Positions 2,997-43,476 of a stretch of 52,641 nt of DNA are shown one piece after another. Origin of the DNA: Minisyncoccota bacterium. GTDB taxonomy: Bacteria > Patescibacteriota > Minisyncoccia > Phycocordibacterales > UBA1550. The stretch is from contig JAVHQE010000064.1 in NCBI GenBank assembly GCA_036170975.1, forward strand, positions 1-52,641, given 5' to 3'. A model generated the notes under the pieces. The model did not search any database. It was not told the DNA's origin and saw nothing but the letters and a program-made list of their open reading frames with translations. Numbering within the stretch: the first letter of the stretch is position 1; each line of letters begins with the position of its first letter. A program made the translations under genes and the position numbers.

Positions 2997-3019
2997 AGGA
3001 CCCTGCGGGGTTCTTTTTT
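2996..3019 (+). terminator. rho-independent terminator-like hairpin
   Basis: aaggaccc / gggttctt stem (8 bp, one G-U) with a tgcg loop, followed by a T run. Confidence 0.55.
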
Positions 3020-3029
3020 ATAAATAATA

Positions 3030-4121
3030 ATGCAAAAACAAATTAAAAAATCAAAAGGAAAAGTTTTTGTGGGTATGTCAGGAGGGGTAGATAGCTCAGT
3101 ATCTGTAGCGCTTCTTCAGGCGGAGGGCTATGACGTCGTCGGCGTTTTTATGAAGGTATGGCAACCGGATTTTTTGCCTTGCACTTGGCGCGAGGAACGT
3201 CTTGACGCGATGCGAGTGGCAGCGCATTTGGGTATCCCGCTCCTTACGTGGGATTTTGAGAAGGAATACAAAGAAGGGGTGGCAGATTATATGATTCGTG
3301 AATATCGCAGAGGACGCACTCCAAACCCTGATGTGATGTGTAACCGCGAAGTAAAGTTTGGCGCCTTTTTCCGCCGTGCGATCCAAGAGGGTGCAGACTT
3401 TGTGGCGACGGGGCACTACGCGCAAATAAAATATGATAAAAAAAACAACGTATATAAAATGCTTAAGGGGGTAGATGATACCAAAGATCAGGCATATTTT
3501 TTGTGGACCCTTAAACAAGAGCAACTTTCAAAAACATTGTTCCCGATTGGAAAATATAAAAAAACACAGGTTCGCATTTTGGCAAAAAAGTTCAACCTCC
3601 CTGTTGCAGAGAAGAAAGACAGTCAAGGCCTTTGTTTTATGGGCAAGCTCGATATGAAGGAATTTCTCGCACATTTTATAAAAGAAAAAGAGGGGTGTAT
3701 TTTGAACGAAGAAGGAGAGGTTATTGGAACGCATCGAGGAGCATTTTTCTATACGCTCGGTGAACGACATGGATTTACTATTTTACAAAAAAAAGCAGAA
3801 GACACTCCTTACTATGTTGTTGCAAAAGACCTCAAGGAGAATACGCTTACGGTGGCGCATCAAGAAAAAAGAGTCTCGATTTCTGCCACACAAGAGATTC
3901 AAGTTTCAGAGGTTAGTTTTTGTGAAGGAATAGTTCCGGATATCAATCGTTCATATTCTGCACAGGTACGTTATCATGGAGAATTATATAGGTGCAATCT
4001 TAGTATAGAAAAAAATGGTCATTGTTCAGTTCATTTTAAAAAAACAGTAATAGTTGACAAGGGGCAGTCTCTTGTAATCTATCATGATGATGAATGTGTC
4101 GGGGGAGGGATTATTAGTTGA
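3030..4121 (+). CDS. mnmA: tRNA 2-thiouridine(34) synthase MnmA
   Basis: PP-loop motif VGMSGGVDSSV, conserved catalytic Cys context (NPDVMCN, GLCFMG), typical length of 363 aa. Confidence 0.9.
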   Translation: MQKQIKKSKGKVFVGMSGGVDSSVSVALLQAEGYDVVGVFMKVWQPDFLPCTWREERLDAMRVAAHLGIPLLTWDFEKEYKEGVADYMIREYRRGRTPNPDVMCNREVKFGAFFRRAIQEGADFVATGHYAQIKYDKKNNVYKMLKGVDDTKDQAYFLWTLKQEQLSKTLFPIGKYKKTQVRILAKKFNLPVAEKKDSQGLCFMGKLDMKEFLAHFIKEKEGCILNEEGEVIGTHRGAFFYTLGERHGFTILQKKAEDTPYYVVAKDLKENTLTVAHQEKRVSISATQEIQVSEVSFCEGIVPDINRSYSAQVRYHGELYRCNLSIEKNGHCSVHFKKTVIVDKGQSLVIYHDDECVGGGIIS

Positions 4122-6156: not shown

Positions 6157-6659
6157 GCAAAAACTCAGAACTCCATAAAAAGATTTGTGCAGCAAGTCTT
6201 CATCAAAAAAATACGGCTGAGTACGGAGAAACATACCGTGAACATGTTCTTGAGCAATACAAGATTGCTATCCAGGGTCTTGACTATACGAGTAAATGGA
6301 AACATATCGTTAATAATTATTTTTTAACTATTCATACCGCGCTTCTTGCGGGGATCAGTCTCTCTGTTACCCGTACTGATATGTCACTCTCTATCCTTAC
6401 GCACGATATTATCCCTTTTGTAGGCGCGGGGATAGCCATTTCCTGGTTTATCACTATCCGCGGGTATAACGAGGTTCTTGCAACGAAGTTTTCAATACTA
6501 CATTGCATTGAAACAGAACTTCCTCTCGCACTTTATACTACTGAATGGGAAATTCTTAATGCTTCATATAAAAACCCTCACCGTGCTGCGCGCATCGACC
6601 CCCTCGTACCTCTCTTCTTCGTGATTTTTTATATCGCTATTTTCCTTTTTGTGAAATAA
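6153..6659 (+). CDS. hypothetical 3-TM membrane protein. The N-terminal helical region plus TM pair resembles RipA-like/SLATT-like small membrane proteins (tentative).
   Basis: EQYKIAIQGLDYTSKWKHIVNNYFLTIHTALLAG precedes two TM helices, and there is a C-terminal TM. The family assignment is from memory only. Confidence 0.5.
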   Translation: MSKNSELHKKICAASLHQKNTAEYGETYREHVLEQYKIAIQGLDYTSKWKHIVNNYFLTIHTALLAGISLSVTRTDMSLSILTHDIIPFVGAGIAISWFITIRGYNEVLATKFSILHCIETELPLALYTTEWEILNASYKNPHRAARIDPLVPLFFVIFYIAIFLFVK

Positions 6660-6677
6660 GTGGTATGTATATACAGT

Positions 6678-8453
6678 ATGAATTCTAAAGAAATCAGAGA
6701 TAAATTCCTTCTATTTTTTGAGAAGCGAGGACATGCGATTGTTCCGTCTGCTTCACTTGTTCCCGAGAACGACCCCTCGGTCCTTTTTAATACTGCAGGT
6801 ATGCAACCACTTGTTCCGTACCTCATGGGGACGCCTCACCCGAGCGGAAAACGCCTTGCAAATAGCCAGAAATGTGTGCGAACGCAAGATATTGATGAAG
6901 TTGGCGACAAAACCCATGATACCTTTTTTGAGATGTTGGGGAACTGGTCGCTCGGAGATTATTTCAAAGAAGACGCTATCAAGTGGAGCTTTGAGTTCTT
7001 GACCTCAAAAGAAGAAGGCCTTGGTCTTGATCGTGCTCGTCTCTATGTGACGGTTTTTGAGGGTAACGATGATGCACCACGCGACACCGAAGCATTTGAA
7101 ATCTGGAAAAAGTATATGCCTGAGAGTCATATTTACTTTATGTCCGCTAAGTCGAATTGGTGGAGCCCTGGCGACAACGGTCCTTGTGGTCCTGATACCG
7201 AGATGTTCTATGATGTTACCAAAGATGGTCTTGGTGATCTGTCTAAAGAGCAGTACATGTCCGCAGACGACCGGCAAGAAGTTGTTGAGATTTGGAATGA
7301 TGTATTCATGGAGTATGAGAAAAAAGACGGCAAGGTAATTGGGAAGCTTGCGACGAAGAACGTAGATACAGGGTCGGGTCTCGAACGTGTTGTGATGGCA
7401 ATACAGGGGAAAGATAATGTTTTTGACACTGATCTCTTTGCGCCTACTATGGAGAAACTCAAAGAGTTAACAGGAGGGGAGATTGTGAATCTTCGCGCGC
7501 AACGTATTGTTGCGGACCACGTACGTACTTCGATAATGATGATTGCCGATGGGGTGCGCCCTTCGAACACCGACCAGGGCTATATTTTGCGCCGTCTACT
7601 CCGTCGTGCGGTCCGTTATGCGGACATGTTGGGCATTCGCCAAGGAACACTTGTTGACCTTGTTCCCGTCATCGCAGAAAAATATCAAGGAGTATATGAA
7701 AACGTTGGAGGGCAACTTTCCCTCATTGTTGAAGAAATTCGCGGGGAAGAAGAAAAATTCAGGAAGACACTTGAGAGGGGAATGAAGGAACTCGCAACCC
7801 TCTTTGGTCAAGGAACAATTACCGCAGAGGATGCTTTTAAGCTTTTTTCCACCTACGGTTTTCCTATTGAGATGACCGAGGAAATTGCGAGCGAAAAAGG
7901 AGTCAATGTTGATCGTAATGGTTTTGATATTGAGTTTAAAAAACACCAAGATCTTTCTCGTGCAGGTGCAGAGCAGAAGTTCAAAGGAGGACTTGCCGAC
8001 AGTAGCGAAAAGACAACCGCACTCCATACGGCGACACACCTCATGCTCGCAGGGTTGCGCAAATATTTAGGAAATGAAGTGCATCAAGCGGGCTCGAATA
8101 TTACTGAAGAGCGTTTGCGCTTTGATTTTAACTATCCTCAAAAAGTTGAGCGTGAAATTCTCGATAATGTAGAAACATATGTGAACGAAGCAATTGAAAA
8201 AAGATGTATCGTTGATAAGTCCCAGATGAAAAAAGGGGAAGCACGGGCTCAGGGTGTTGAAGGGAGTTTTTGGGAAAAGTACCCTGAAGAGGTTACTGTC
8301 TATACCGTAAAAAATGGTGACACTATTTATTCGCAAGAGCTTTGTGGGGGGCCTCATGTTGAAAGGACTGAAGGTATGGGCAAATTTAAAATAGTAAAAG
8401 AGGAGGCGTCGAGCGCAGGGGTTCGTCGTATTAAGGCGATATTAGAAAAATGA
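6678..8453 (+). CDS. alaS: alanine--tRNA ligase, short form lacking the C-Ala domain
   Basis: N-terminus MNSKEIRDKFLLFFEKRGH, class II motifs, and editing-domain HTATHLM and CGGPH motifs. The track starts at GTG 6660; ATG 6678 gives the canonical N-terminus. Confidence 0.9.
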   Translation: MNSKEIRDKFLLFFEKRGHAIVPSASLVPENDPSVLFNTAGMQPLVPYLMGTPHPSGKRLANSQKCVRTQDIDEVGDKTHDTFFEMLGNWSLGDYFKEDAIKWSFEFLTSKEEGLGLDRARLYVTVFEGNDDAPRDTEAFEIWKKYMPESHIYFMSAKSNWWSPGDNGPCGPDTEMFYDVTKDGLGDLSKEQYMSADDRQEVVEIWNDVFMEYEKKDGKVIGKLATKNVDTGSGLERVVMAIQGKDNVFDTDLFAPTMEKLKELTGGEIVNLRAQRIVADHVRTSIMMIADGVRPSNTDQGYILRRLLRRAVRYADMLGIRQGTLVDLVPVIAEKYQGVYENVGGQLSLIVEEIRGEEEKFRKTLERGMKELATLFGQGTITAEDAFKLFSTYGFPIEMTEEIASEKGVNVDRNGFDIEFKKHQDLSRAGAEQKFKGGLADSSEKTTALHTATHLMLAGLRKYLGNEVHQAGSNITEERLRFDFNYPQKVEREILDNVETYVNEAIEKRCIVDKSQMKKGEARAQGVEGSFWEKYPEEVTVYTVKNGDTIYSQELCGGPHVERTEGMGKFKIVKEEASSAGVRRIKAILEK

Positions 8454-8566
8454 GATATTCATGAGTTTGTTTATTAAGGACATTTTGAATGATGAAACTC
8501 GTTTTTGTTAAGAATTAGGGAGATTATCTAATTTGTATTTGATTTTGTACTTGGTATACTTACTGT

Positions 8567-8902
8567 ATGAAAAAAGAAGTTCAAAAACCTAAAAAAGTTA
8601 CTATCGATGATTTGGCGGTGATGGTTGCTAAGGGGTTTAATGAGGTGGGTAGGGAAATAGGTGAAGTCAAAGACCGTCTGGGTGCAGTAGAGAATCGTCT
8701 GGGTGCAGTAGAGAATCGTCTGGGTGCAGTAGAGAATCGTCTGGGTGCAGTAGAGAATCGCTTGGACACCGTAGAAGAAAACATCATCGCAACTCGTCGG
8801 GACTTACTTACGATGGGTGACCGATTTGTTTTAAAGTACGAGATGTACGACCTTTCAACTCGCGTTGGCGTGCTTGAGCAAAAAGCAAAATCAAAAAAAT
8901 AA
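8567..8902 (+). CDS. hypothetical coiled-coil protein with heptad tandem repeats (RLGAVEN x4)
   Basis: 111-aa ORF. Four identical 7-aa repeats are encoded by a perfect 21-bp tandem repeat. Confidence 0.6.
   Translation: MKKEVQKPKKVTIDDLAVMVAKGFNEVGREIGEVKDRLGAVENRLGAVENRLGAVENRLGAVENRLDTVEENIIATRRDLLTMGDRFVLKYEMYDLSTRVGVLEQKAKSKK
8675..8779 (+). repeat. tandem repeat: four perfect copies of the 21-bp unit cgtctgggtgcagtagagaat (8675-8758) plus one degenerate copy
   Basis: Direct reading of the sequence. The repeat is in frame within CDS 8567..8902. Confidence 0.95.
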
Positions 8903-8941
8903 TTGAAGTTATGAATACCATCGTGCTATAATGAAGACACG

Positions 8942-15138: not shown

Positions 15139-15211
15139 CAATTCTAACCCAGCAGGGTTACATCTTGGATGCAAACTCTTGGATATAGAATAAAATTATT
15201 AAATTACTATC

Positions 15212-16780: not shown

Positions 16781-16840
16781 GTTAGAAGGAAAAGTCGAAT
16801 TTTATAAATAAGATAACGAGCGAAGTGACATTAGATTATT

Positions 16841-16953
16841 TACCCAGTTAAATGATTTCAAATTTATACAAATTTGAAATCGCGATTTGGAAAATCGCAT
16901 TTAACCGGGTGCAAGTTTTTCTAAGCTCACTGCGTTCACTAATAAAAACTAAC
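16841..16953 (+). promoter_or_regulatory. structured leader element, copy A (three-way junction 16847-16905 plus stem 16914-16920/16944-16950)
   Basis: Perfect helices read directly from the sequence. A near-identical paralog lies at 42161-42336. The element ends at the dnaK ATG. Confidence 0.6.
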
Positions 16954-18855
16954 ATGGCAAAAATTTTAGGTATTGATTTAGGAACAACAAATAGCGCTGT
17001 CGCTATTATTGAAGGAGGCGAACCACGTATTGTAGAAAATATTGAGGGTGCACGTACCACACCGTCTATTGTTGCGGTGTCAAAAAGTGGCGAGCGCTTA
17101 GTGGGCTTATTGGCAAAACGACAGGCAGTAACAAATCCTCAGAATACACTTTTTGGGATTAAGCGTATGATCGGGCACACCTTTGAGGACGAAGGGGTAC
17201 AGCGGGACAAAAAAGTTGCGCCCTTTAGTATTGAAAAGTCACCAACCGGTGGTGTGATGGTAAAAATGGGGGATCGTCAATATCGTCCTGAAGAGATTTC
17301 TGCGATGGTACTTCAGAAATTGAAGGCAGATGCAGAAGCAAAACTTGGTGAAAAGATAACAGAGGCGGTAATTACGGTTCCTGCATACTTTAATGATTCA
17401 CAACGTCAGGCAACGAAAGATGCAGGGCAGATTGCTGGATTTGACGTAAAACGTATCATCAACGAACCAACTGCGGCGGCGCTTGCGTACGGTTTTAATA
17501 AAAAGAAAGACGAGAAGATCGTGGTATATGATATGGGTGGCGGTACTTTTGACGTGTCTATACTTGAGGTTGGGGGAGATGTTATTGAAGTGAAGTCTAC
17601 GGATGGTGATGTACATATGGGTGGTGAAGATATCGATCAAAAGATTATTCGCCATATCGCAAGCGAATTCAAAAAGGAATCAGGGATTGATGTTTCAAAT
17701 GATATTATGGCGCTCCAGCGACTCAAGGAGGCTGCAGAAAAAGCAAAACACGAGCTTTCGACAACCCTAGAGTCGGAGATAAATATTCCGTTCATCACCT
17801 CAGGCGCTGATGGTCCGAAACACTTACTCTTGAAACTTTCCCGCGCAACGCTCGAGGATCTTGCTCGTGAGTATATTGATAAATCAATTGAAATTACAAA
17901 GCGTGCTATTGCCGCCTCGCCTTTTAAAAAGGAAGATATCAATGAAATCATTATGGTTGGAGGGCAGACACGCATGCCAGCAATTGTAAATGCCGTAAAA
18001 GAACTTTTTGGGAAAGAACCAAATCGTTCTATCAACCCTGATGAAGTAGTTGCCATTGGAGCTGCTATTCAGGCAGGTATTTTACAGGGAGATGTAAAAG
18101 ATGTCTTGCTTCTCGACGTCATTCCTCTTTCTTTAGGGATTGAAACATTTGGAAATGTAGCAACAAAACTTATTGAAAAGAACACGACGATTCCTGCTTC
18201 ACGCTCGCAGGTATTTTCTACCGCAGCAGATAATCAGACGTCAGTGGAGATACACGTAGTACAAGGTGAACGTCCTATGGCTCCGGACAATAAGTCCCTT
18301 GGACGATTTATTCTCGACGGTATTCCACCAGCACATCGCGGTGTTCCTCAAGTGGAGGTAAGCTTTGATGTTGATGCGAACGGTATTTTGCAAGTAAAAG
18401 CAAAAGAAAAAACAACAGGAAAAGAACAATCGATTCGTATCGAGGCAAGCTCGGGACTTTCTAAGGATGATATCGCACGTATGCAAAAAGAAGCAGAGAT
18501 GAATGCAGAAGAAGACGCAAAGAAACGTGATAGTGCAGAATCAAAAAATGTTCTTGAACAAATGATTTATACAGCAGAGAAAGCACTTCGTGATAATGGA
18601 GATAAAATTTCCCCTGAAATTAAGACTGCGGTAGAAGAAAAAATTGCAACAGCAAAGACGGCAAGTGCGGGTGCAGACATTGAGGCAATGAAAAAGTCTG
18701 CAACAGATCTTTCAGAAGAAGTTTCAAAAATAGGTGAAGCAATGATGAAAGACTCAGAAGCCACAAAGAATCAAAGTTCTGAACCTGCGGGAGAAAAAAA
18801 AGAAGGAGGTGAGGGTACTGTACACGACGCTGAGTATAAAGAAGAAGGAAAGTAA
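16954..18855 (+). CDS. dnaK: molecular chaperone DnaK (Hsp70)
   Basis: The canonical N-terminus [14 protein letters not shown] begins at 16954. Full set of Hsp70 motifs. The track extension back to 16852 is rejected. Confidence 0.95.
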
Positions 18856-35659: not shown

Positions 35660-35722
35660 GTCATTGCGAGGCACGAAGCAATCTAGCGTTTAAACATGGA
35701 TTGCTTCGTGCCTCGCAATGAC
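35660..35722. repeat. perfect inverted repeat with 24-bp arms and a 15-nt loop (terminator-like palindrome)
   Basis: gtcattgcgaggcacgaagcaatc (35660-35683) is the exact reverse complement of 35699-35722. Confidence 0.95.
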
Positions 35723-41037: not shown

Positions 41038-42135
41038 ATGAAAAAAAATAACTCAATCGATAAAGTGTTTCTTGGTCTCGCGCTCGCCCTTGCACTCCTG
41101 GGTCTTTTTGTTTTTACGTCTGCCTCATTCGGACTTTTTGCGCGAAAAGGGTTCTCTTTGCAAGATCTCTTCTTCGATCAGGTTGCTCTCGGTTTGGTGT
41201 TGGGTCTCATTGCAATGATTGTCGCCATTCGTTTTCCTTTGGATCTTTTACGTAAATACTCGCTACATCTTTTTATTGTTTCAATTTTTTTAACCATTCT
41301 TGTTTTTGTTCCTCATATTGGGCTCGAAAAAATTAAAGGAGCGCACCGGTGGATAGACCTTCGCTTTACTTCATTCCAGCCATCTGAAGCGCTCAAGCTT
41401 GCTACGGTAATCTATTTTGCTTCACTTCTCCCTCTTTTTAAAAATCGTATTCATGAAATCAAATACGCTCTAGGAATCTTTTTTGGTATTGTTGCGGTAC
41501 CAGCACTGCTTCTCCTTAAAGAGCCTGATACGGGGACTCTGGCTGTTCTTTTTGCAGCTCTTTTAACAATGCTTATTGCAGGGGGAGCGAAATTGCGGCA
41601 TTTTTTTGTTGTCGTTATTATTGCGGTACTTTCGATATGGGTACTTGCGTTGGCAAAACCCTATATCATGGAGCGGGTACTTACTTTATTTGATTCATCA
41701 CGTGACCCTCAAGGGTCAAGCTATCAAATTCAAAAATCACTTCTTGCTATTGGGTCAGGTGGTATCACTGGGCGTGGATTTGGGCAGAGTATTCAAAAAT
41801 TTGGTTCACTCCCTGAACCAACAGGGGATTCGATTTTTGCTGTTGTCGGTGAAGAATTCGGGTTTGTGGGAGGAGCGTTGATTATTATACTTTTTTTCCT
41901 CTTTGGTCTTCGGGGGATTCAGATTGCACGCCGGGCACCTGATATGTGGAGTGGACTTTTAGCCACTGGAATTGTTATACTGATTATATCGCAGTCATTT
42001 GCGAATATTGCAGCAATGCTTGGGCTAATCCCGCTTACGGGAGTGCCTTTGGTTTTTGTGAGCCATGGAGGAACAGCTCTCCTTTTTGCTTTTCTCGAAA
42101 TCGGTATATTGCTCAATATCTCTAAGAGAAATTAA
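41038..42135 (+). CDS. ftsW: SEDS-family peptidoglycan glycosyltransferase FtsW/RodA
   Basis: Polytopic membrane protein with QPSE, LPEPTGDSIFAVVGEEFGF and GVPLVFVSHGG motifs. Located between mraY and murG. Confidence 0.85.
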   Translation: MKKNNSIDKVFLGLALALALLGLFVFTSASFGLFARKGFSLQDLFFDQVALGLVLGLIAMIVAIRFPLDLLRKYSLHLFIVSIFLTILVFVPHIGLEKIKGAHRWIDLRFTSFQPSEALKLATVIYFASLLPLFKNRIHEIKYALGIFFGIVAVPALLLLKEPDTGTLAVLFAALLTMLIAGGAKLRHFFVVVIIAVLSIWVLALAKPYIMERVLTLFDSSRDPQGSSYQIQKSLLAIGSGGITGRGFGQSIQKFGSLPEPTGDSIFAVVGEEFGFVGGALIIILFFLFGLRGIQIARRAPDMWSGLLATGIVILIISQSFANIAAMLGLIPLTGVPLVFVSHGGTALLFAFLEIGILLNISKRN

Positions 42136-42160
42136 GGAGTGTAGCAACTATAATTTCTCT

Positions 42161-42336
42161 TACCCCGTTAAATGATTTCAAATTCGTGTTTTGTTGTAGT
42201 TTTGTGTTAAAATCAACAAAAGGTTGTGAAATTGCTCACTAAAAACATACAGAAAATTTGGAATCGCGATTTGCAAAATCGCATTTAACTGGGTGTAAGT
42301 TTTCTGATTTCACTCCGTTCAATAATAAAAACTAAC
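42161..42336 (+). promoter_or_regulatory. structured leader element, copy B (paralog of 16841-16953, with a 70-nt apical loop in hairpin 1)
   Basis: The 5-prime block matches copy A at 25 of 26 nt and the 3-prime block is about 90% identical over about 88 nt. The helix-forming positions are preserved. Confidence 0.6.
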
Positions 42337-43476
42337 ATGAAAATTCTTTTTACCGGTGGAGGTAGTGGTGGACATTTTTACCCCATTATCGCCGTTGCAG
42401 AAAAATTAAATATTCTCCTTGAACGCGAAAAGATTGCAAGCGTTAATTTTTATTACATGTCGACTGAGCCTTACAATGAAGGACTTTTATCTGATAATAA
42501 AATTAAATTCATACCCGTCACTGCAGGTAAAGTTCGGGGCTATTTCTCGGTCCTTAATTTTGTTGATTTTTTCAAAATGGGGTGGGGTATGGTCAAAGCC
42601 TTTTTTCAACTTTTTGCCTTATATCCTGATGTAATTTTTAGTAAAGGTGGGTTTCCTAGTTTCCCTGTTCTTTTTGCTGCACGCTTTTTTCGTATTCCTG
42701 TAATTATCCATGAATCAGACAGTGCTCCAGGGCGTGTAAATGCGTGGGCAGGATCATTCGCACAAAAGATTGCGATATCGTATCCCGAAGCTGCACAATT
42801 TTTCCCTGCAGGGCGTACGGCACTTACGGGAAATCCCGTTCGTCAAGAAATCTTGCGCCCAACGGGAAAAGACGCATTCAAAGAGCTCGGTCTCGACCCT
42901 ACTATTCCTGTCCTCTTGATTCTCGGAGGATCTCTCGGTGCGCAAATAATAAACGCGCAATTTGAAACTCTTGCTCCGCGTCTTGTTGATAAGTATCAAA
43001 TTATCCATCAAACAGGAGAGGGTAATCTTGAGAGTGTGCGTACTACCGTTACAGGTCTTCTTGGCAACAGTCCCTACGCTTCACGGTATCATCTCTACGG
43101 GTACCTTAATACTGAAACGATGAAGCTTGCGGCCGAAGCTGCTACCGTTGTTGTTTCTCGCGCAGGGTCAGCAATTTTTGAGATTGCGGCGTGGGGTATT
43201 CCTGCGATTATCATCCCTATTACTGAATCAAATGCAAATCATCAACGAAAAAATGCTTATGCGTACGCACGCGCAGGTGCAGCGCTTGTAATAGAAGAGG
43301 CAAACCTTGGTCCAAATATTCTCCTCTCTGAAATTGATAATCTTATGTCAGACGAAAAAAGGAGAGGTATGATGAGAGAATCAGCAAAGGCATTTTCTCA
43401 TGTTGATGGTGCAGAAAAAATAGCAGAACAACTCGTCGCCGTTCTCTTGCGTCATCAAATCCCTTCTGCCCTATGA
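42337..43476 (+). CDS. murG: UDP-N-acetylglucosamine--N-acetylmuramyl-(pentapeptide) pyrophosphoryl-undecaprenol N-acetylglucosamine transferase
   Basis: GGGSGGHFYP N-terminus and GT28 C-terminal domain motifs (SRAGSAIFEIAAWGIPAIIIP). Confidence 0.9.
   Translation: MKILFTGGGSGGHFYPIIAVAEKLNILLEREKIASVNFYYMSTEPYNEGLLSDNKIKFIPVTAGKVRGYFSVLNFVDFFKMGWGMVKAFFQLFALYPDVIFSKGGFPSFPVLFAARFFRIPVIIHESDSAPGRVNAWAGSFAQKIAISYPEAAQFFPAGRTALTGNPVRQEILRPTGKDAFKELGLDPTIPVLLILGGSLGAQIINAQFETLAPRLVDKYQIIHQTGEGNLESVRTTVTGLLGNSPYASRYHLYGYLNTETMKLAAEAATVVVSRAGSAIFEIAAWGIPAIIIPITESNANHQRKNAYAYARAGAALVIEEANLGPNILLSEIDNLMSDEKRRGMMRESAKAFSHVDGAEKIAEQLVAVLLRHQIPSAL

Follow-up and report, generated by a model that had tools for sequence, protein, structure and literature searches.

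A clade-restricted family of modular structured elements before housekeeping genes in Patescibacteria

Closely similar non-coding sequences upstream of unrelated genes in one genome, some of them common to several genomes and neither Rfam families nor insertion sequences, were described as putative mobile promoters by Matus-Garcia, Nijveen and van Passel in 2012 (as summarised in PMC3575422). In that summary they form an operational class, with no structure stated: two non-homologous genes of a genome must share, in the region from -150 to -50, a stretch of at least 50 nt with an identity of at least 80%. The two elements described here, which precede dnaK and murG in a Minisyncoccota bacterium, are 92% identical over 50 nt and so fall within this class, but have in addition a nested architecture, conserved RNA pairings, a putative promoter module and a fixed junction with the start codon. 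The Correia elements of Neisseria (CREE/NEMIS), which are reported RNase III substrates (PMC3575422), resemble the present cassette as multi-copy, short, non-coding repeats of about 100-160 bp with terminal inverted repeats and a long mRNA hairpin, in full-length and internally deleted forms, with promoter elements and co-transcription with their neighbours. Correia elements, however, insert at TA, duplicating the target; they face either way and lie at differing distances from genes, and MITEs likewise occur in either orientation and in varied contexts, whereas the present cassette shows no target-site duplication, keeps a single orientation and ends on ATG.

REP/BIME and ERIC sequences, which are transcribed and thought to influence mRNA stability, are similarly mosaics of nested palindromic units in the intergenic regions of operons, but REP elements lie mostly at gene 3' ends or between genes, in either orientation, are RAYT-linked and supply no translation start region. 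FourU thermometers, too, have a meltable, AU-rich helix between a U-run and the translation start region; there, however, the partner of the U-run is the Shine-Dalgarno sequence of heat-shock or virulence genes, whereas the U-run of the cassette pairs with an A-run at -10 to -5, GUG(G) pairs with (C)CAU, and the targets are mostly ribosomal-protein genes. The intercistronic RNase III sites of phage T7 are irregular, internally looped hairpins between cistrons, placed like the cassette just upstream of the next start codon, but they have no sequence similarity to it, do not recur as mobile modules and contain no promoters. To our knowledge, the gene-expression signals of CPR bacteria (Patescibacteria) are almost unstudied.

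Two homologous copies and their parts

The window (the whole stretch of 52,641 nt analysed here, contig JAVHQE010000064.1) contains copy A at 16806-16956 (+), between grpE and dnaK, and copy B at 42126-42339 (+), between ftsW and murG; a covariance model run with its filters off found no third copy in the window. Both copies close on an ATG, and the downstream products DnaK and MurG were confirmed by Pfam. The initial annotation had described a structured leader of about 115 nt before dnaK with one near-identical paralog before murG. The homology itself is borne out by aligned blocks identical at 24/25 nt, at 92% over 50 nt (16870-16919 against 42254-42303) and at 80% over 51 nt, none of which recurred in 100 shuffles. 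Its extent and number have to be revised, since the homology begins about 35 nt further 5' than noted (16806 in copy A, about 42126 in copy B) and the two copies belong to a family of dozens rather than forming a pair of paralogs.

Copy A, on the + strand throughout, starts with the A-rich left end AAATAAGATAAC (16806..16817), which is identical across the non-orthologous rpoC, S18 and dnaK copies and whose left junction lies 3' of AAAGTCGAATTTTA, a sequence common to the element-free dnaK sites of relatives. It is followed by a 5' arm (16818..16841) that is complementary to the 3' arm and part of the minimum-free-energy long hairpin, and that consists of the up-box GAGCGAAGTGAC (16818-16829) and the AT-rich segment ATTAGATTATTT (16830-16841). 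The palindromic module (16842..16910) is a three-way junction according to both RNAfold and covariation, made up of P2 (16842-16853 with 16899-16910), hairpin 1, or P3 (16854-16881), and hairpin 2, or P4 (16882-16898). Downstream lie the 5' strand of a further helix, P5ext (GTGcaAGTTTTT, 16909..16920; RNAalifold consensus and anchor-based count), which in copy A overlaps the final two bases of P2, then the down-box CTCACTGCGTTC (16926..16937), the partner of the up-box in the 3' arm, and an A/C-rich tail with the dnaK ATG (16938..16956, ATG at 16954-16956) that includes the 3' strand of P5ext, AAAAACTaaCAT (16944-16955).

The helices of the junction are as initially described: an outer helix GTTAAAT/ATTTAAC, here lengthened to ACCC/GGGT past one mismatch, a hairpin 1 of 12 perfect base pairs around an ATAC loop, and a hairpin 2 that reads GCGATTT-GGA-AAATCGC. 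RNAfold of copy A returns exactly this three-way junction (-31.8 kcal/mol, z = -4.77, 0/200 shuffles as good), and z reaches -5.8 when the outer arms are included; the minus strand folds equally well (-44.0 kcal/mol, z = -5.9). The element is a structured non-coding one, co-oriented with its downstream gene as had been proposed, and the ORF-track extension of dnaK over 16852-16953 should not be read as coding. The sequence GTTAAAT/ATTTAAC also fits the core and inverse-core consensus of integron attC sites, but this identification was rejected on inspection, the order being inverted relative to attC and the sites lying between essential genes. A leader peptide was likewise rejected: ORFs of 11-13 codons start from an ATG in the left end (AATGAGC...) of some copies, but the ORF is not conserved, this codon being ACG or AGG elsewhere, or a stop following early.

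Copy B, also on the + strand, corresponds to copy A with a 70-nt insert (42185..42254) within the loop of hairpin 1. Its left end and 5' arm (42126..42161) contain the ftsW stop codon (42133-42135), the up-box GAGTGTAGCAAC (42137-42148) and the hexamer TATAAT (42149-42154). The palindromic module (42162..42294), the counterpart of the copy A junction region, comprises P2 (42162-42173 with 42283-42294), the P3 stem (42174-42184 with 42255-42265) and P4 (42266-42282), and is followed by the 3' arm, tail and murG ATG (42293..42339, ATG at 42337-42339), with P5ext at 42293-42303 and 42328-42338 and the down-box at 42309-42320.

The insert was aligned with its homologues, giving a set of 20 inserts of 64-70 nt. 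The block TATGnTAAAAT(C)AC is the best conserved, at a fixed position and in sense orientation in every case; a strict TGnTAnnnT is present in 14/20 modules, and the rest of the inserts have diverged. In copy B the block contains the putative extended -10 element TGtTAAAAT (42205-42213), which matches the host consensus, the same motif being found 4-13 nt before the ATG of 14/46 window genes (background 1.1%). By sequence, then, the hairpin 1 insert of copy B is a candidate sigma-70 extended -10 promoter of the host's own type; searches for such a module outside hairpin 1 found none. Two other promoter candidates were set aside. The TATAAT-like hexamer located 6-8 nt before ACCC is probably not one, as it reads ATTAGA or ATTGGA in about half of the copies and in none has the TG extension seen in real promoters of this host, and GCGACA-N17-TTAAAT, read as a -35/-10 pair, lacks the A at -11 and is missing from copies with other interiors. 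Shine-Dalgarno motifs precede 3/46 host genes against a background of 8%, in agreement with the earlier remark that core genes of this organism lack them, and, from the sequence, expression in this genome seems to depend on extended -10 promoters 4-13 nt before ATG, and hence on leaderless mRNAs, without Shine-Dalgarno use.

Distribution and separable layers of the family

The family that includes copies A and B is clade-restricted and consists of repeated modular elements located before dozens of housekeeping genes. Public scans, HMMs and the covariance model together identified carriers in at least five Yonathbacteria-like genomes and in metagenomes, with 15 genome loci and 14 metagenome loci from exact-pattern scans, 42 sense copies (34 unique) from nhmmer, and about 36 distinct sites, all sense, from the covariance model. 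A search of Rfam (release 15) gave no match in the window at gathering thresholds, and only noise far below threshold in E-value mode. Two scans of viral contigs for phage carriage found nothing.

The position of the element is strict as well. All copies but one have the ATG of a housekeeping gene as their right end, the genes served being those for S10, S19, L22, L14, S14, S8, S4, L17, L13, L35, S18 and L11 as well as rpoB, rpoC, pyrG, murG, dnaK and others, and each site separates two cistrons of a long operon (S10, spc, alpha, rpoBC, dcw, grpE-dnaK), with the left end 0-30 nt past the upstream stop codon. The notion of a dnaK leader with a single paralog must therefore be given up, and the motif should not be treated as a gene-specific riboregulator. 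The left flank is constant within subfamilies; the right flank, which is the start codon, varies. Many genomic copies, in both orientations and in non-5' contexts with target-site duplications, had been put forward as the signature of a MITE rather than a leader. Copies are indeed many, but none among the approximately 36 sites is antisense-only, antisense matches being weaker mirrors that are each outscored by the corresponding sense match (e.g. 164.6 versus 44.9 bits with the covariance model); none of these sites is at a gene 3' end or between convergent genes; and the copies compared have no copy-specific direct repeat that would represent a target-site duplication. No transposase was linked to the element.

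Three layers can be separated, each present or absent at orthologous sites. The outer frame consists of the 5' arm (up-box and AT-rich segment) and the complementary 3' arm (U-run block and down-box), followed by an A/C-rich tail of about 18 nt that ends in ATG. The second layer, set between the frame arms, is the palindromic module bounded by ACCCAG...CTGGGT, with ends ACCCAGTTAAAT/ATTTAACTGGGT, which is a three-way junction in copies A and B. The third, in long copies such as B, is the insert of 64-70 nt at the tip of hairpin 1 with the host extended -10 consensus. At dnaK the site is occupied in the window as well as in L013, L021, L031 and L026, and empty in L032-L035, close relatives having a grpE-dnaK spacer of 48-84 nt without the element. 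At the S4 site the frame stands alone in L007, and is combined with junction and promoter module in L006; rpoC and dnaK copies exist both with and without the promoter module, and the interior of the S10 copy differs wholly between L005 and L017. At orthologous sites the palindromic module can be absent, swapped or reduced, its minimal form being a perfect 41-bp palindrome (L010 at 4636). A possible 12-nt footprint of the element, ACCCAGCAGGGT, is found at 15147-15158 of the window, where other genomes have a full cassette.

A riboswitch has an unpaired ligand-binding core in all its members, but here the junction has no unpaired nucleotides, and bona fide members have it replaced by unrelated hairpins or lack it. 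Hammerhead and other self-cleaving ribozymes were rejected on account of the same missing unpaired core and of the Rfam result, and a CsrA site at the GGA of the hairpin 2 loop because this loop varies (GGA, GAA, GCA, ACA, TTC).

Conserved pairing and the start codon

In 21 distinct copies, 97.7% of the junction cells are paired, and hairpins 1 and 2 contain 6 doubly changed pairs against 1.3 in shuffles (0/500 shuffles reach 6), in line with the pairing-preserving differences noted earlier between the two copies. The outer arms are paired in 77% of cells in 30 copies, compared with 33-48% when the partners are slid; one of their columns is unpaired in 15/30 cells. Compensatory changes across 30 copies maintain the AGTTTTT/AAAAACT stem seen near the dnaK ATG in the initial annotation, but the stem is longer than described: in P5ext, GUG(G)..GAUUUU is paired to AAAAUC..(C)CAU, so that the helix extends into the start codon and takes in its A and U. 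By the anchor-based count, 90.6% of P5ext cells are paired in these copies against 81.4% in shuffles (0/500). Its compensatory pairs include one of AU 19 and UA 11, and one in which position -2 covaries with x2, the second base past P2 (GC 15, UA 8, AU 3). Position -1 is C in 27/29 scorable copies, and position -5, C in 27 copies and U in 3, departs only to a wobble pair. In part this covariation tracks two subfamilies, a GA type and an AG type, and it may thus represent few independent events.

P5ext competes with the long hairpin in predicted folds. The latter, in which more than 25 bp stack into one helix interrupted by internal loops, is the minimum-free-energy fold of most copies. It keeps about 18 nt at the 3' end single-stranded, and in most copies P5 is predicted to form only at a cost of 10-20 kcal/mol. 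In the grpE-dnaK co-transcript the start-covering stem is predicted to lose to the long hairpin by about 14 kcal/mol, leaving the start region open. P5ext is the RNAalifold consensus of the predicted promoter-derived leaders, while the minimum-free-energy fold of the predicted leader of copy B is without it. Predicted accessibility of the start region is 0.63-0.73 when the 5' arm is present and 0.49-0.58 when it is missing, a modest and uneven gap, and rises by about 0.1 from 15 to 37 C. G.U pairs are no commoner than A.C mismatches (30 vs 33 in P1, 5 vs 8 in P5), which makes these counts uninformative for strand assignment; with no such excess, the conserved pairing other than P5ext could act at the DNA level. 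In L017 a TTGACA-N16-TAGGAT promoter precedes the S19 copy, which implies that the whole element is transcribed there.

A candidate expression cassette and its alternatives

The reading that we tentatively prefer, without considering it probable, is that copies A and B are clade-restricted composite leader cassettes, portable units of promoter plus leader that carry a translational gate. The cassette would fill the entire spacer from the upstream stop codon to the next start codon and so provide the 5' untranslated region of the downstream gene. RNA reading through from the upstream gene, as from grpE into dnaK, would fold into one long hairpin that leaves the tail and AUG single-stranded for a Shine-Dalgarno-free start by the ribosome. 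In RNA without the 5' arm, which would arise at the internal promoter of long copies or when the long hairpin is cleaved, GUG(G)..GAUUUU could instead pair with AAAAUC..(C)CAU, covering the start codon, so that the gate would be set by presence or absence of the 5' arm. Spread or exchange among sites would proceed by recombination or conversion, and not by cut-and-paste transposition with target duplication. This two-state mechanism is drawn from conserved pairings and predicted folds. It has one odd consequence, namely that transcripts from the element's own promoter would be those with the covered start codon.

Alternatively, the family could be a selfish miniature palindromic mobile element (of the MITE, REP or Correia kind) with no role at the RNA level, its pairing representing DNA hairpins or terminal inverted repeats for mobilisation and its copies surviving where they are harmless. 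The many copies in a single clade, patchy at orthologous sites, the nested separable layers, each inside the tip of the preceding hairpin, the perfect 41-bp palindrome, the equal folding of both strands with no G.U excess, and the possible footprint near 15147 are all in line with such an origin. We nevertheless regard it as unlikely, since the sites are all sense and all but one abut a start codon, neither copy-specific target-site duplications nor a linked transposase were found, the insert carries a host promoter consensus that is always sense, and P5ext, which lies outside the palindrome, exists in one orientation only, takes in the AUG and is maintained through compensatory changes. A punctuation or stability element, in which cleavage of the long irregular hairpin (outer arms and P2) by RNase III would separate messages, the halves protecting the ends and the 3' arm refolding into P5ext, is in our view distinctly unlikely, but it is compatible with the portable cassette rather than exclusive of it. 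It fits the sites between cistrons of long operons, the left end shortly past a stop codon, the stacked helix with internal loops and an interior free to vary while a stable hairpin remains, and it accounts for P5ext forming in promoter-less short copies, although no sequence mark of a cleavage site is present.

The fourU-like thermometer proposed at first, which would gate translation of dnaK (and murG) by melting of the U-run/A-run stem, now appears improbable. A conserved AU-rich helix does adjoin and include the AUG, predicted accessibility rises slightly with temperature and the host lacks Shine-Dalgarno sequences; yet classical fourU elements pair with just such a sequence, predicted folds of copy A in its own context do not contain the helix, dnaK is expressed in close relatives that lack the element, and a heat-shock-specific device is hard to reconcile with the same cassette before many non-heat-shock housekeeping genes, mostly for ribosomal proteins and RNA polymerase. 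Gating of this kind as a function specific to dnaK is thus not supported. Still less credence goes to a Nus-factor BoxA leader, in which NusB/S10 would bind RYTC-NN-TAARA, formed by the down-box with the first part of the tail, after a BoxB-like hairpin and cause antitermination in long operons or repress translation as at E. coli suhB. As to the likeness of the down-box to BoxA, many of 28 copies tabulated by eye fit GYTC..TAA.A exactly, a frame that accounts for 9/11 consensus positions, about half beginning with A and not G, the motif lies less than 50 nt from the start codon, and the target genes are mostly translation genes, S10 itself among them. Against GYTCTTTAANA (PMC5725501), a gamma-proteobacterial consensus that may not be the host's, typical copies score 8-9/11 and some 10/11 (e.g. 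L004 ACTCTTTAAAA, L010 GCTCCTTAAAA). The motif is of low complexity, however, and the two central T positions vary, among them T6; in E. coli, SuhB was no longer recruited when this position was mutated together with C4 (C4T/T6C; PMC5725501). Highly improbable, in turn, is a terminator-promoter insulator, in which the junction and GAUUUU would stop read-through from upstream while transcripts from the hairpin 1 promoter, lacking its 5' half, would escape. Every copy does have a U-run of 4-5 that begins 2-6 nt past the module, other parts of the window use small ACCC..GGGT hairpins as terminators (3000-3011 plus T-run), and a putative promoter lies inside the hairpin; but promoter-less short copies would then silence essential dnaK, rpoC, S10 and L14, a terminator scan makes no call at the site in copy A or B, the U-run does not follow the stem immediately, and conservation of the U-run is already accounted for by P5ext.

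One sub-clade has a repeated structured leader, often with its own putative promoter, before ribosomal-protein, RNA-polymerase, chaperone and cell-wall genes. If its two-state fold is true, it would offer a testable case of Shine-Dalgarno-free translation and of the tuning of internal cistrons, and would show promoters and leaders propagating as units. It is tempting to go further, on what we consider a long shot, and to see in it a new portable expression unit for mostly leaderless, Shine-Dalgarno-free translation, one that would install itself at start codons, hold a promoter in its hairpin tip, bring stop codon and AUG close together through the long hairpin, allow re-initiation or shunting over 150-230 nt, and cover the AUG with a helix when the 5' arm is missing. 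Insertion layer by layer into hairpin tips would then point to an undescribed route of mobilisation that targets hairpins.

Two copies in the window and a wider family

The initial annotation had described a structured leader of dnaK with a paralog upstream of murG, and its sequences at 16840-16956 and 42160-42339 were found as described when the window was re-read. Copy A (16806-16956) fills the grpE-dnaK spacer and copy B (42126-42339) the ftsW-murG spacer, each ending at the ATG; both flanking gene orders, grpE-dnaK and ftsW-murG, were confirmed by Pfam. Pairwise alignment shows copy B to be copy A with extra sequence inserted into the hairpin 1 loop. A repeat finder reported two matching stretches, one of 50 nt (92% identity) and one of 51 nt (80%), and three diagnostic blocks occur exactly twice each in the window and not at all in shuffled sequence. 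The three-way junction proposed for copy A is also the RNAfold structure (-31.8 kcal/mol, z = -4.77), in which the outer helix (P2) runs on to ACCC/GGGU, and the corresponding stems are predicted to close around the insert in copy B. Since the DnaK domain match begins at residue 4, dnaK truly starts at 16954, and the upstream extension in the ORF track (from 16852) is non-coding, as had been claimed. The element had not been recognised as any named RNA family, and indeed an Rfam search returned nothing above the gathering thresholds; in E-value mode its hits were no more than noise.

The family extends well beyond the two paralogs first recognised. An exact scan with GCGATTTNNNAAATCGCATTTAAC (one genome per species) gave 15 loci in five MAGs labelled Yonathbacteria, Nomurabacteria, Minisyncoccia or plain "bacterium", and a metagenome scan with ACCCAGTTAAATGATTTCAAAT gave 14 further loci; scans of viral contigs with either pattern were negative. 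Profile HMMs of the 5' and 3' blocks detected 42 sense copies, 34 of them unique, including members without the scanned patterns. A covariance-model search, a step that the initial annotation had proposed, was here trained on eight short copies and run with filters off; it located about 36 distinct sites across 34 loci of related genomes and metagenomes. The window yielded its two known copies only, and at every site the sense match scored far above its antisense mirror (e.g. 164.6 vs 44.9 bits).

All copies but one end at the ATG of a housekeeping gene. These encode ribosomal proteins (S10 after tuf, S19, L22, L14, S14, S8, S4, L17, L13, L35, S18 and L11), or are rpoB, rpoC, dnaK, murG, pyrG and a few genes for membrane or unknown proteins. 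The sole exception, the L3 copy of locus L005, lies in front of the native leader, about 85 nt from the ATG. At locus L017 (12026-12170), the S17 stop codon lies 3 nt before ACCCAG, so that the up-box of the L14 cassette is inside the S17 coding end. The S10 operon of the same locus carries, between rplB and rpsS (6348-8924), two foreign ORFs with their own terminators and promoters, one of 487 aa with a weak CarboxypepD_reg-like domain and one of 332 aa without a Pfam domain; upstream of its S19 cassette is TTGACA-N16-TAGGAT, followed by a hairpin with a U-run.

Nested layers and a promoter-like insert

When the copies were aligned without their interiors, a constant frame emerged; in 5'-to-3' order, its parts are an A-rich left end, usually 0-30 nt past the upstream stop codon, the up-box GAGCGAAGCGAC, an AT-rich segment of 12-14 nt, ACCCAG and CNGGGT on either side of the variable interior, G-N-N followed by GAUUUU or AGUUUU, the down-box TCGCTTCRCTC, which is the complement of the up-box, the tail NNTAAGAAAATCAACC or its variant AATAAAAACTAAC, and the ATG. 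Several interiors occur. Copy A has the junction with hairpin 1 short, and in copy B and the majority of the others hairpin 1 of the junction holds a 64-70-nt insert. The interior may also consist of hairpin 2 only, a 41-bp perfect palindrome (locus L010 at 4636), or of an unrelated long hairpin (loci L014, L017, L005 and L003). At the S4 site, one genome has the frame without any interior and another the frame, junction and insert. The insert is likewise present or absent at orthologous rpoC (L003 vs L004) and dnaK sites (L026 vs the window), and the S10 copies of L005 and L017 differ by a swapped interior. The layers are thus nested and separable, each lying in the tip of the previous hairpin.

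A third insertion point within the cassette lies between U-run block and down-box: the L11 copy of L019 (~540-620) and the rpoB copy of L003 (~3490-3560) hold further sequence there, about 55-80 nt long and in one case a GC-rich hairpin. In the L17-L13 spacer of the window (15147-15158), ACCCAGCAGGGT joins both P2 strands directly with no interior, where other genomes have a full cassette; this could be a footprint, an unoccupied site or a product of chance.

Twenty inserts could be aligned over their whole length. Their most conserved block, TATGnTAAAAT(C)AC, has a fixed position, with a strict TGnTAnnnT in 14 of the 20, and a search for the insert outside hairpin 1 found none. The same TGnTAnnnT, ending 4-13 nt before the ATG, precedes 14 of 46 gene starts in the window (background 1.1%), the 46 including 16112, 18922, 25082, 26837, 36796, 38337 and 48842 on the plus strand and 48150 and 52546 on the minus strand. 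Shine-Dalgarno-like tetramers are not enriched (3/46, background 8.4%), which bears out the statement that core genes lack them. Together, these frequencies suggest mostly leaderless mRNAs from extended -10 promoters. The copy B insert, with TGtTAAAAT at 42205-42213, some 125 nt upstream of the ATG, resembles such promoters, and from this consensus we infer promoter activity. No TGnTAnnnT is present in short copies such as A; dnaK is therefore presumably transcribed together with grpE, from a promoter whose motif TGtTAGAAT lies 9 nt before the grpE ATG.

Conserved pairings and competing folds

Pairing in the junction, outer arms and small stem was counted on pseudo-alignments, made by joining fixed-length blocks that had been cut from the actual sequences at fixed anchors, with interiors replaced by N. 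Over 21 distinct copies the junction is 97.7% paired (slid controls, 14-57%). Differences between copies had been noted to preserve pairing, and six junction pairs are changed on both sides (1.3 in shuffles; reached by 0/500), for example, in hairpin 2, GCG/CGC to ACG/CGT, AAG/CTT or ACA/TGT; L004 adds two in hairpin 1. Pairing in the outer arms is 77%; they form two sub-helices that flank an internal loop, and 15/30 cells of one column are unpaired. The core of the small stem recognised initially is paired in 30/30 copies. In predicted promoter-derived leaders, RNAalifold extends this stem to GUG(G)/(C)CAU, covering the first two bases (AU) of the start codon; the extended stem, P5ext, is 90.6% paired by anchor-based count vs 81.4% in shuffles (0/500), with pairs AU 19/UA 11 and GC 15/UA 8/AU 3, and at position -5, 27 copies have C and 3 have U.

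P5ext has GU in common with the 3' strand of P2 and crosses the outer-arm helix, and is therefore mutually exclusive with the long hairpin that, with 30 nt upstream included, is the MFE fold of most copies. This irregular hairpin runs from the arms through P2 to the interior and keeps the last ~18 nt as well as the AUG single-stranded; in most copies, a fold forced to contain P5 is 10-20 kcal/mol less stable. With the 5' arm present, positions -10 to +3 have a predicted accessibility of 0.63-0.73; in its absence the figure is 0.49-0.58, with wide variation between copies. In the predicted promoter-derived leader of copy B a copy-specific alternative pairing wins over P5ext. A two-state model hence rests on covariation and topology rather than on a clear thermodynamic switch. 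The long fold of copy A reaches -44.6 kcal/mol (z = -5.8), but its minus strand folds equally well and G.U pairs are not in excess over A.C mismatches, so that energy and wobble counts do not assign the palindromic part to RNA or DNA. It is P5ext that speaks for a role in sense-strand RNA.

The best-supported reading is a clade-specific, composite, repeated promoter-plus-leader cassette. In read-through RNA the long hairpin would form and expose the A/C-rich, Shine-Dalgarno-free start region, whereas in RNA without the 5' arm P5ext could close over the AUG. Among the rivals, a purely selfish palindromic element is unlikely, and RNase III punctuation, which is compatible with the cassette reading, is somewhat less probable still. 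The structural part of the initial annotation was largely right; its gene-specific reading, a fourU-like dnaK thermometer, was not supported and is now quite improbable. A BoxA/Nus leader is marginally more doubtful again: typical copies match 8-9 of 11 positions of the gamma-proteobacterial consensus GYTCTTTAANA (PMC5725501). A terminator-promoter insulator is the least probable of these readings. With no Rfam match, and with defining features that differ from those of Correia elements, REP/ERIC and fourU, the element is distinct from the described families compared. The cassette belongs to a known kind, that of promoters and leaders propagated as units or of palindromic repeats between genes, Correia elements being the closest mechanistic analogue and the "putative mobile promoters", an operational class, the closest published concept (PMC3575422). 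Its strict abutment on the start codon, nested layers and start-codon-occluding helix are unusual.

History at the dnaK site and other repeats

Syntenic dnaK loci were reached through GrpE homologues. The relative at L031 (GrpE 89% identity) also carries this short cassette. In L032-L034 (76-80%), the grpE-dnaK spacer is 48-62 nt long and no covariance-model match was found in ~20 kb each; JBAQCU01, though cassette-rich elsewhere, also has an empty dnaK site. Copy A begins directly after AAAGTCGAATTTTA, a sequence common to empty sites, and replaces the native 35-45-nt leader up to the ATG without target duplication. Copies A and B have a common genome-specific down-box/tail variant, yet their 5' arms come from different subfamilies, a mosaic suggestive of exchange between copies by recombination or gene conversion.

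The native dnaK leader and the family's 3' arm both carry TTTAATAGTC(...)TCACT, a hint that a leader of this kind gave rise to the frame. In element-free spacers (L033 10638, L034 10654, L035 10687), the conserved leader AAAGTCGAA(T/A)TTTAATAGTC(T/C)CAC..AATCACA resembles the 3' arm GATTTTAATAGTCGCTTCACTC; this could be the frame in its ancestral form, or else a conserved dnaK signal in its own right. The genes rpsI and grpE, adjacent in the window, are separated in relatives by variable islands (L032 3398-9801, L035 1677-9952) with Fic, restriction-modification and GmrSD/HNH genes, and with PRiA4_ORF3 or RhuM.

Other repeats were noted in the window. A small ORF without a Pfam domain (8588-8902) contains five tandem copies of a 21-nt unit (8639-8775), i.e. 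a 7-residue repeat. Just past the stop codon of an ORF ending at 2996, ACCCTGCGGGGT followed by TCTTTTTT (3000-3011) resembles an intrinsic terminator, with an ACCC..GGGT foot as in P2. At 35660-35722, GTCATTGCGAGGCACGAAGCAATC and its complement form a perfect inverted repeat of 24 nt, with arms 15 nt apart and the second overlapping an ATG at 35718; together with similar '...TTGCGAG...CTCGCAA...' hairpins in intergenic regions of L035, it may represent a second repeat family.
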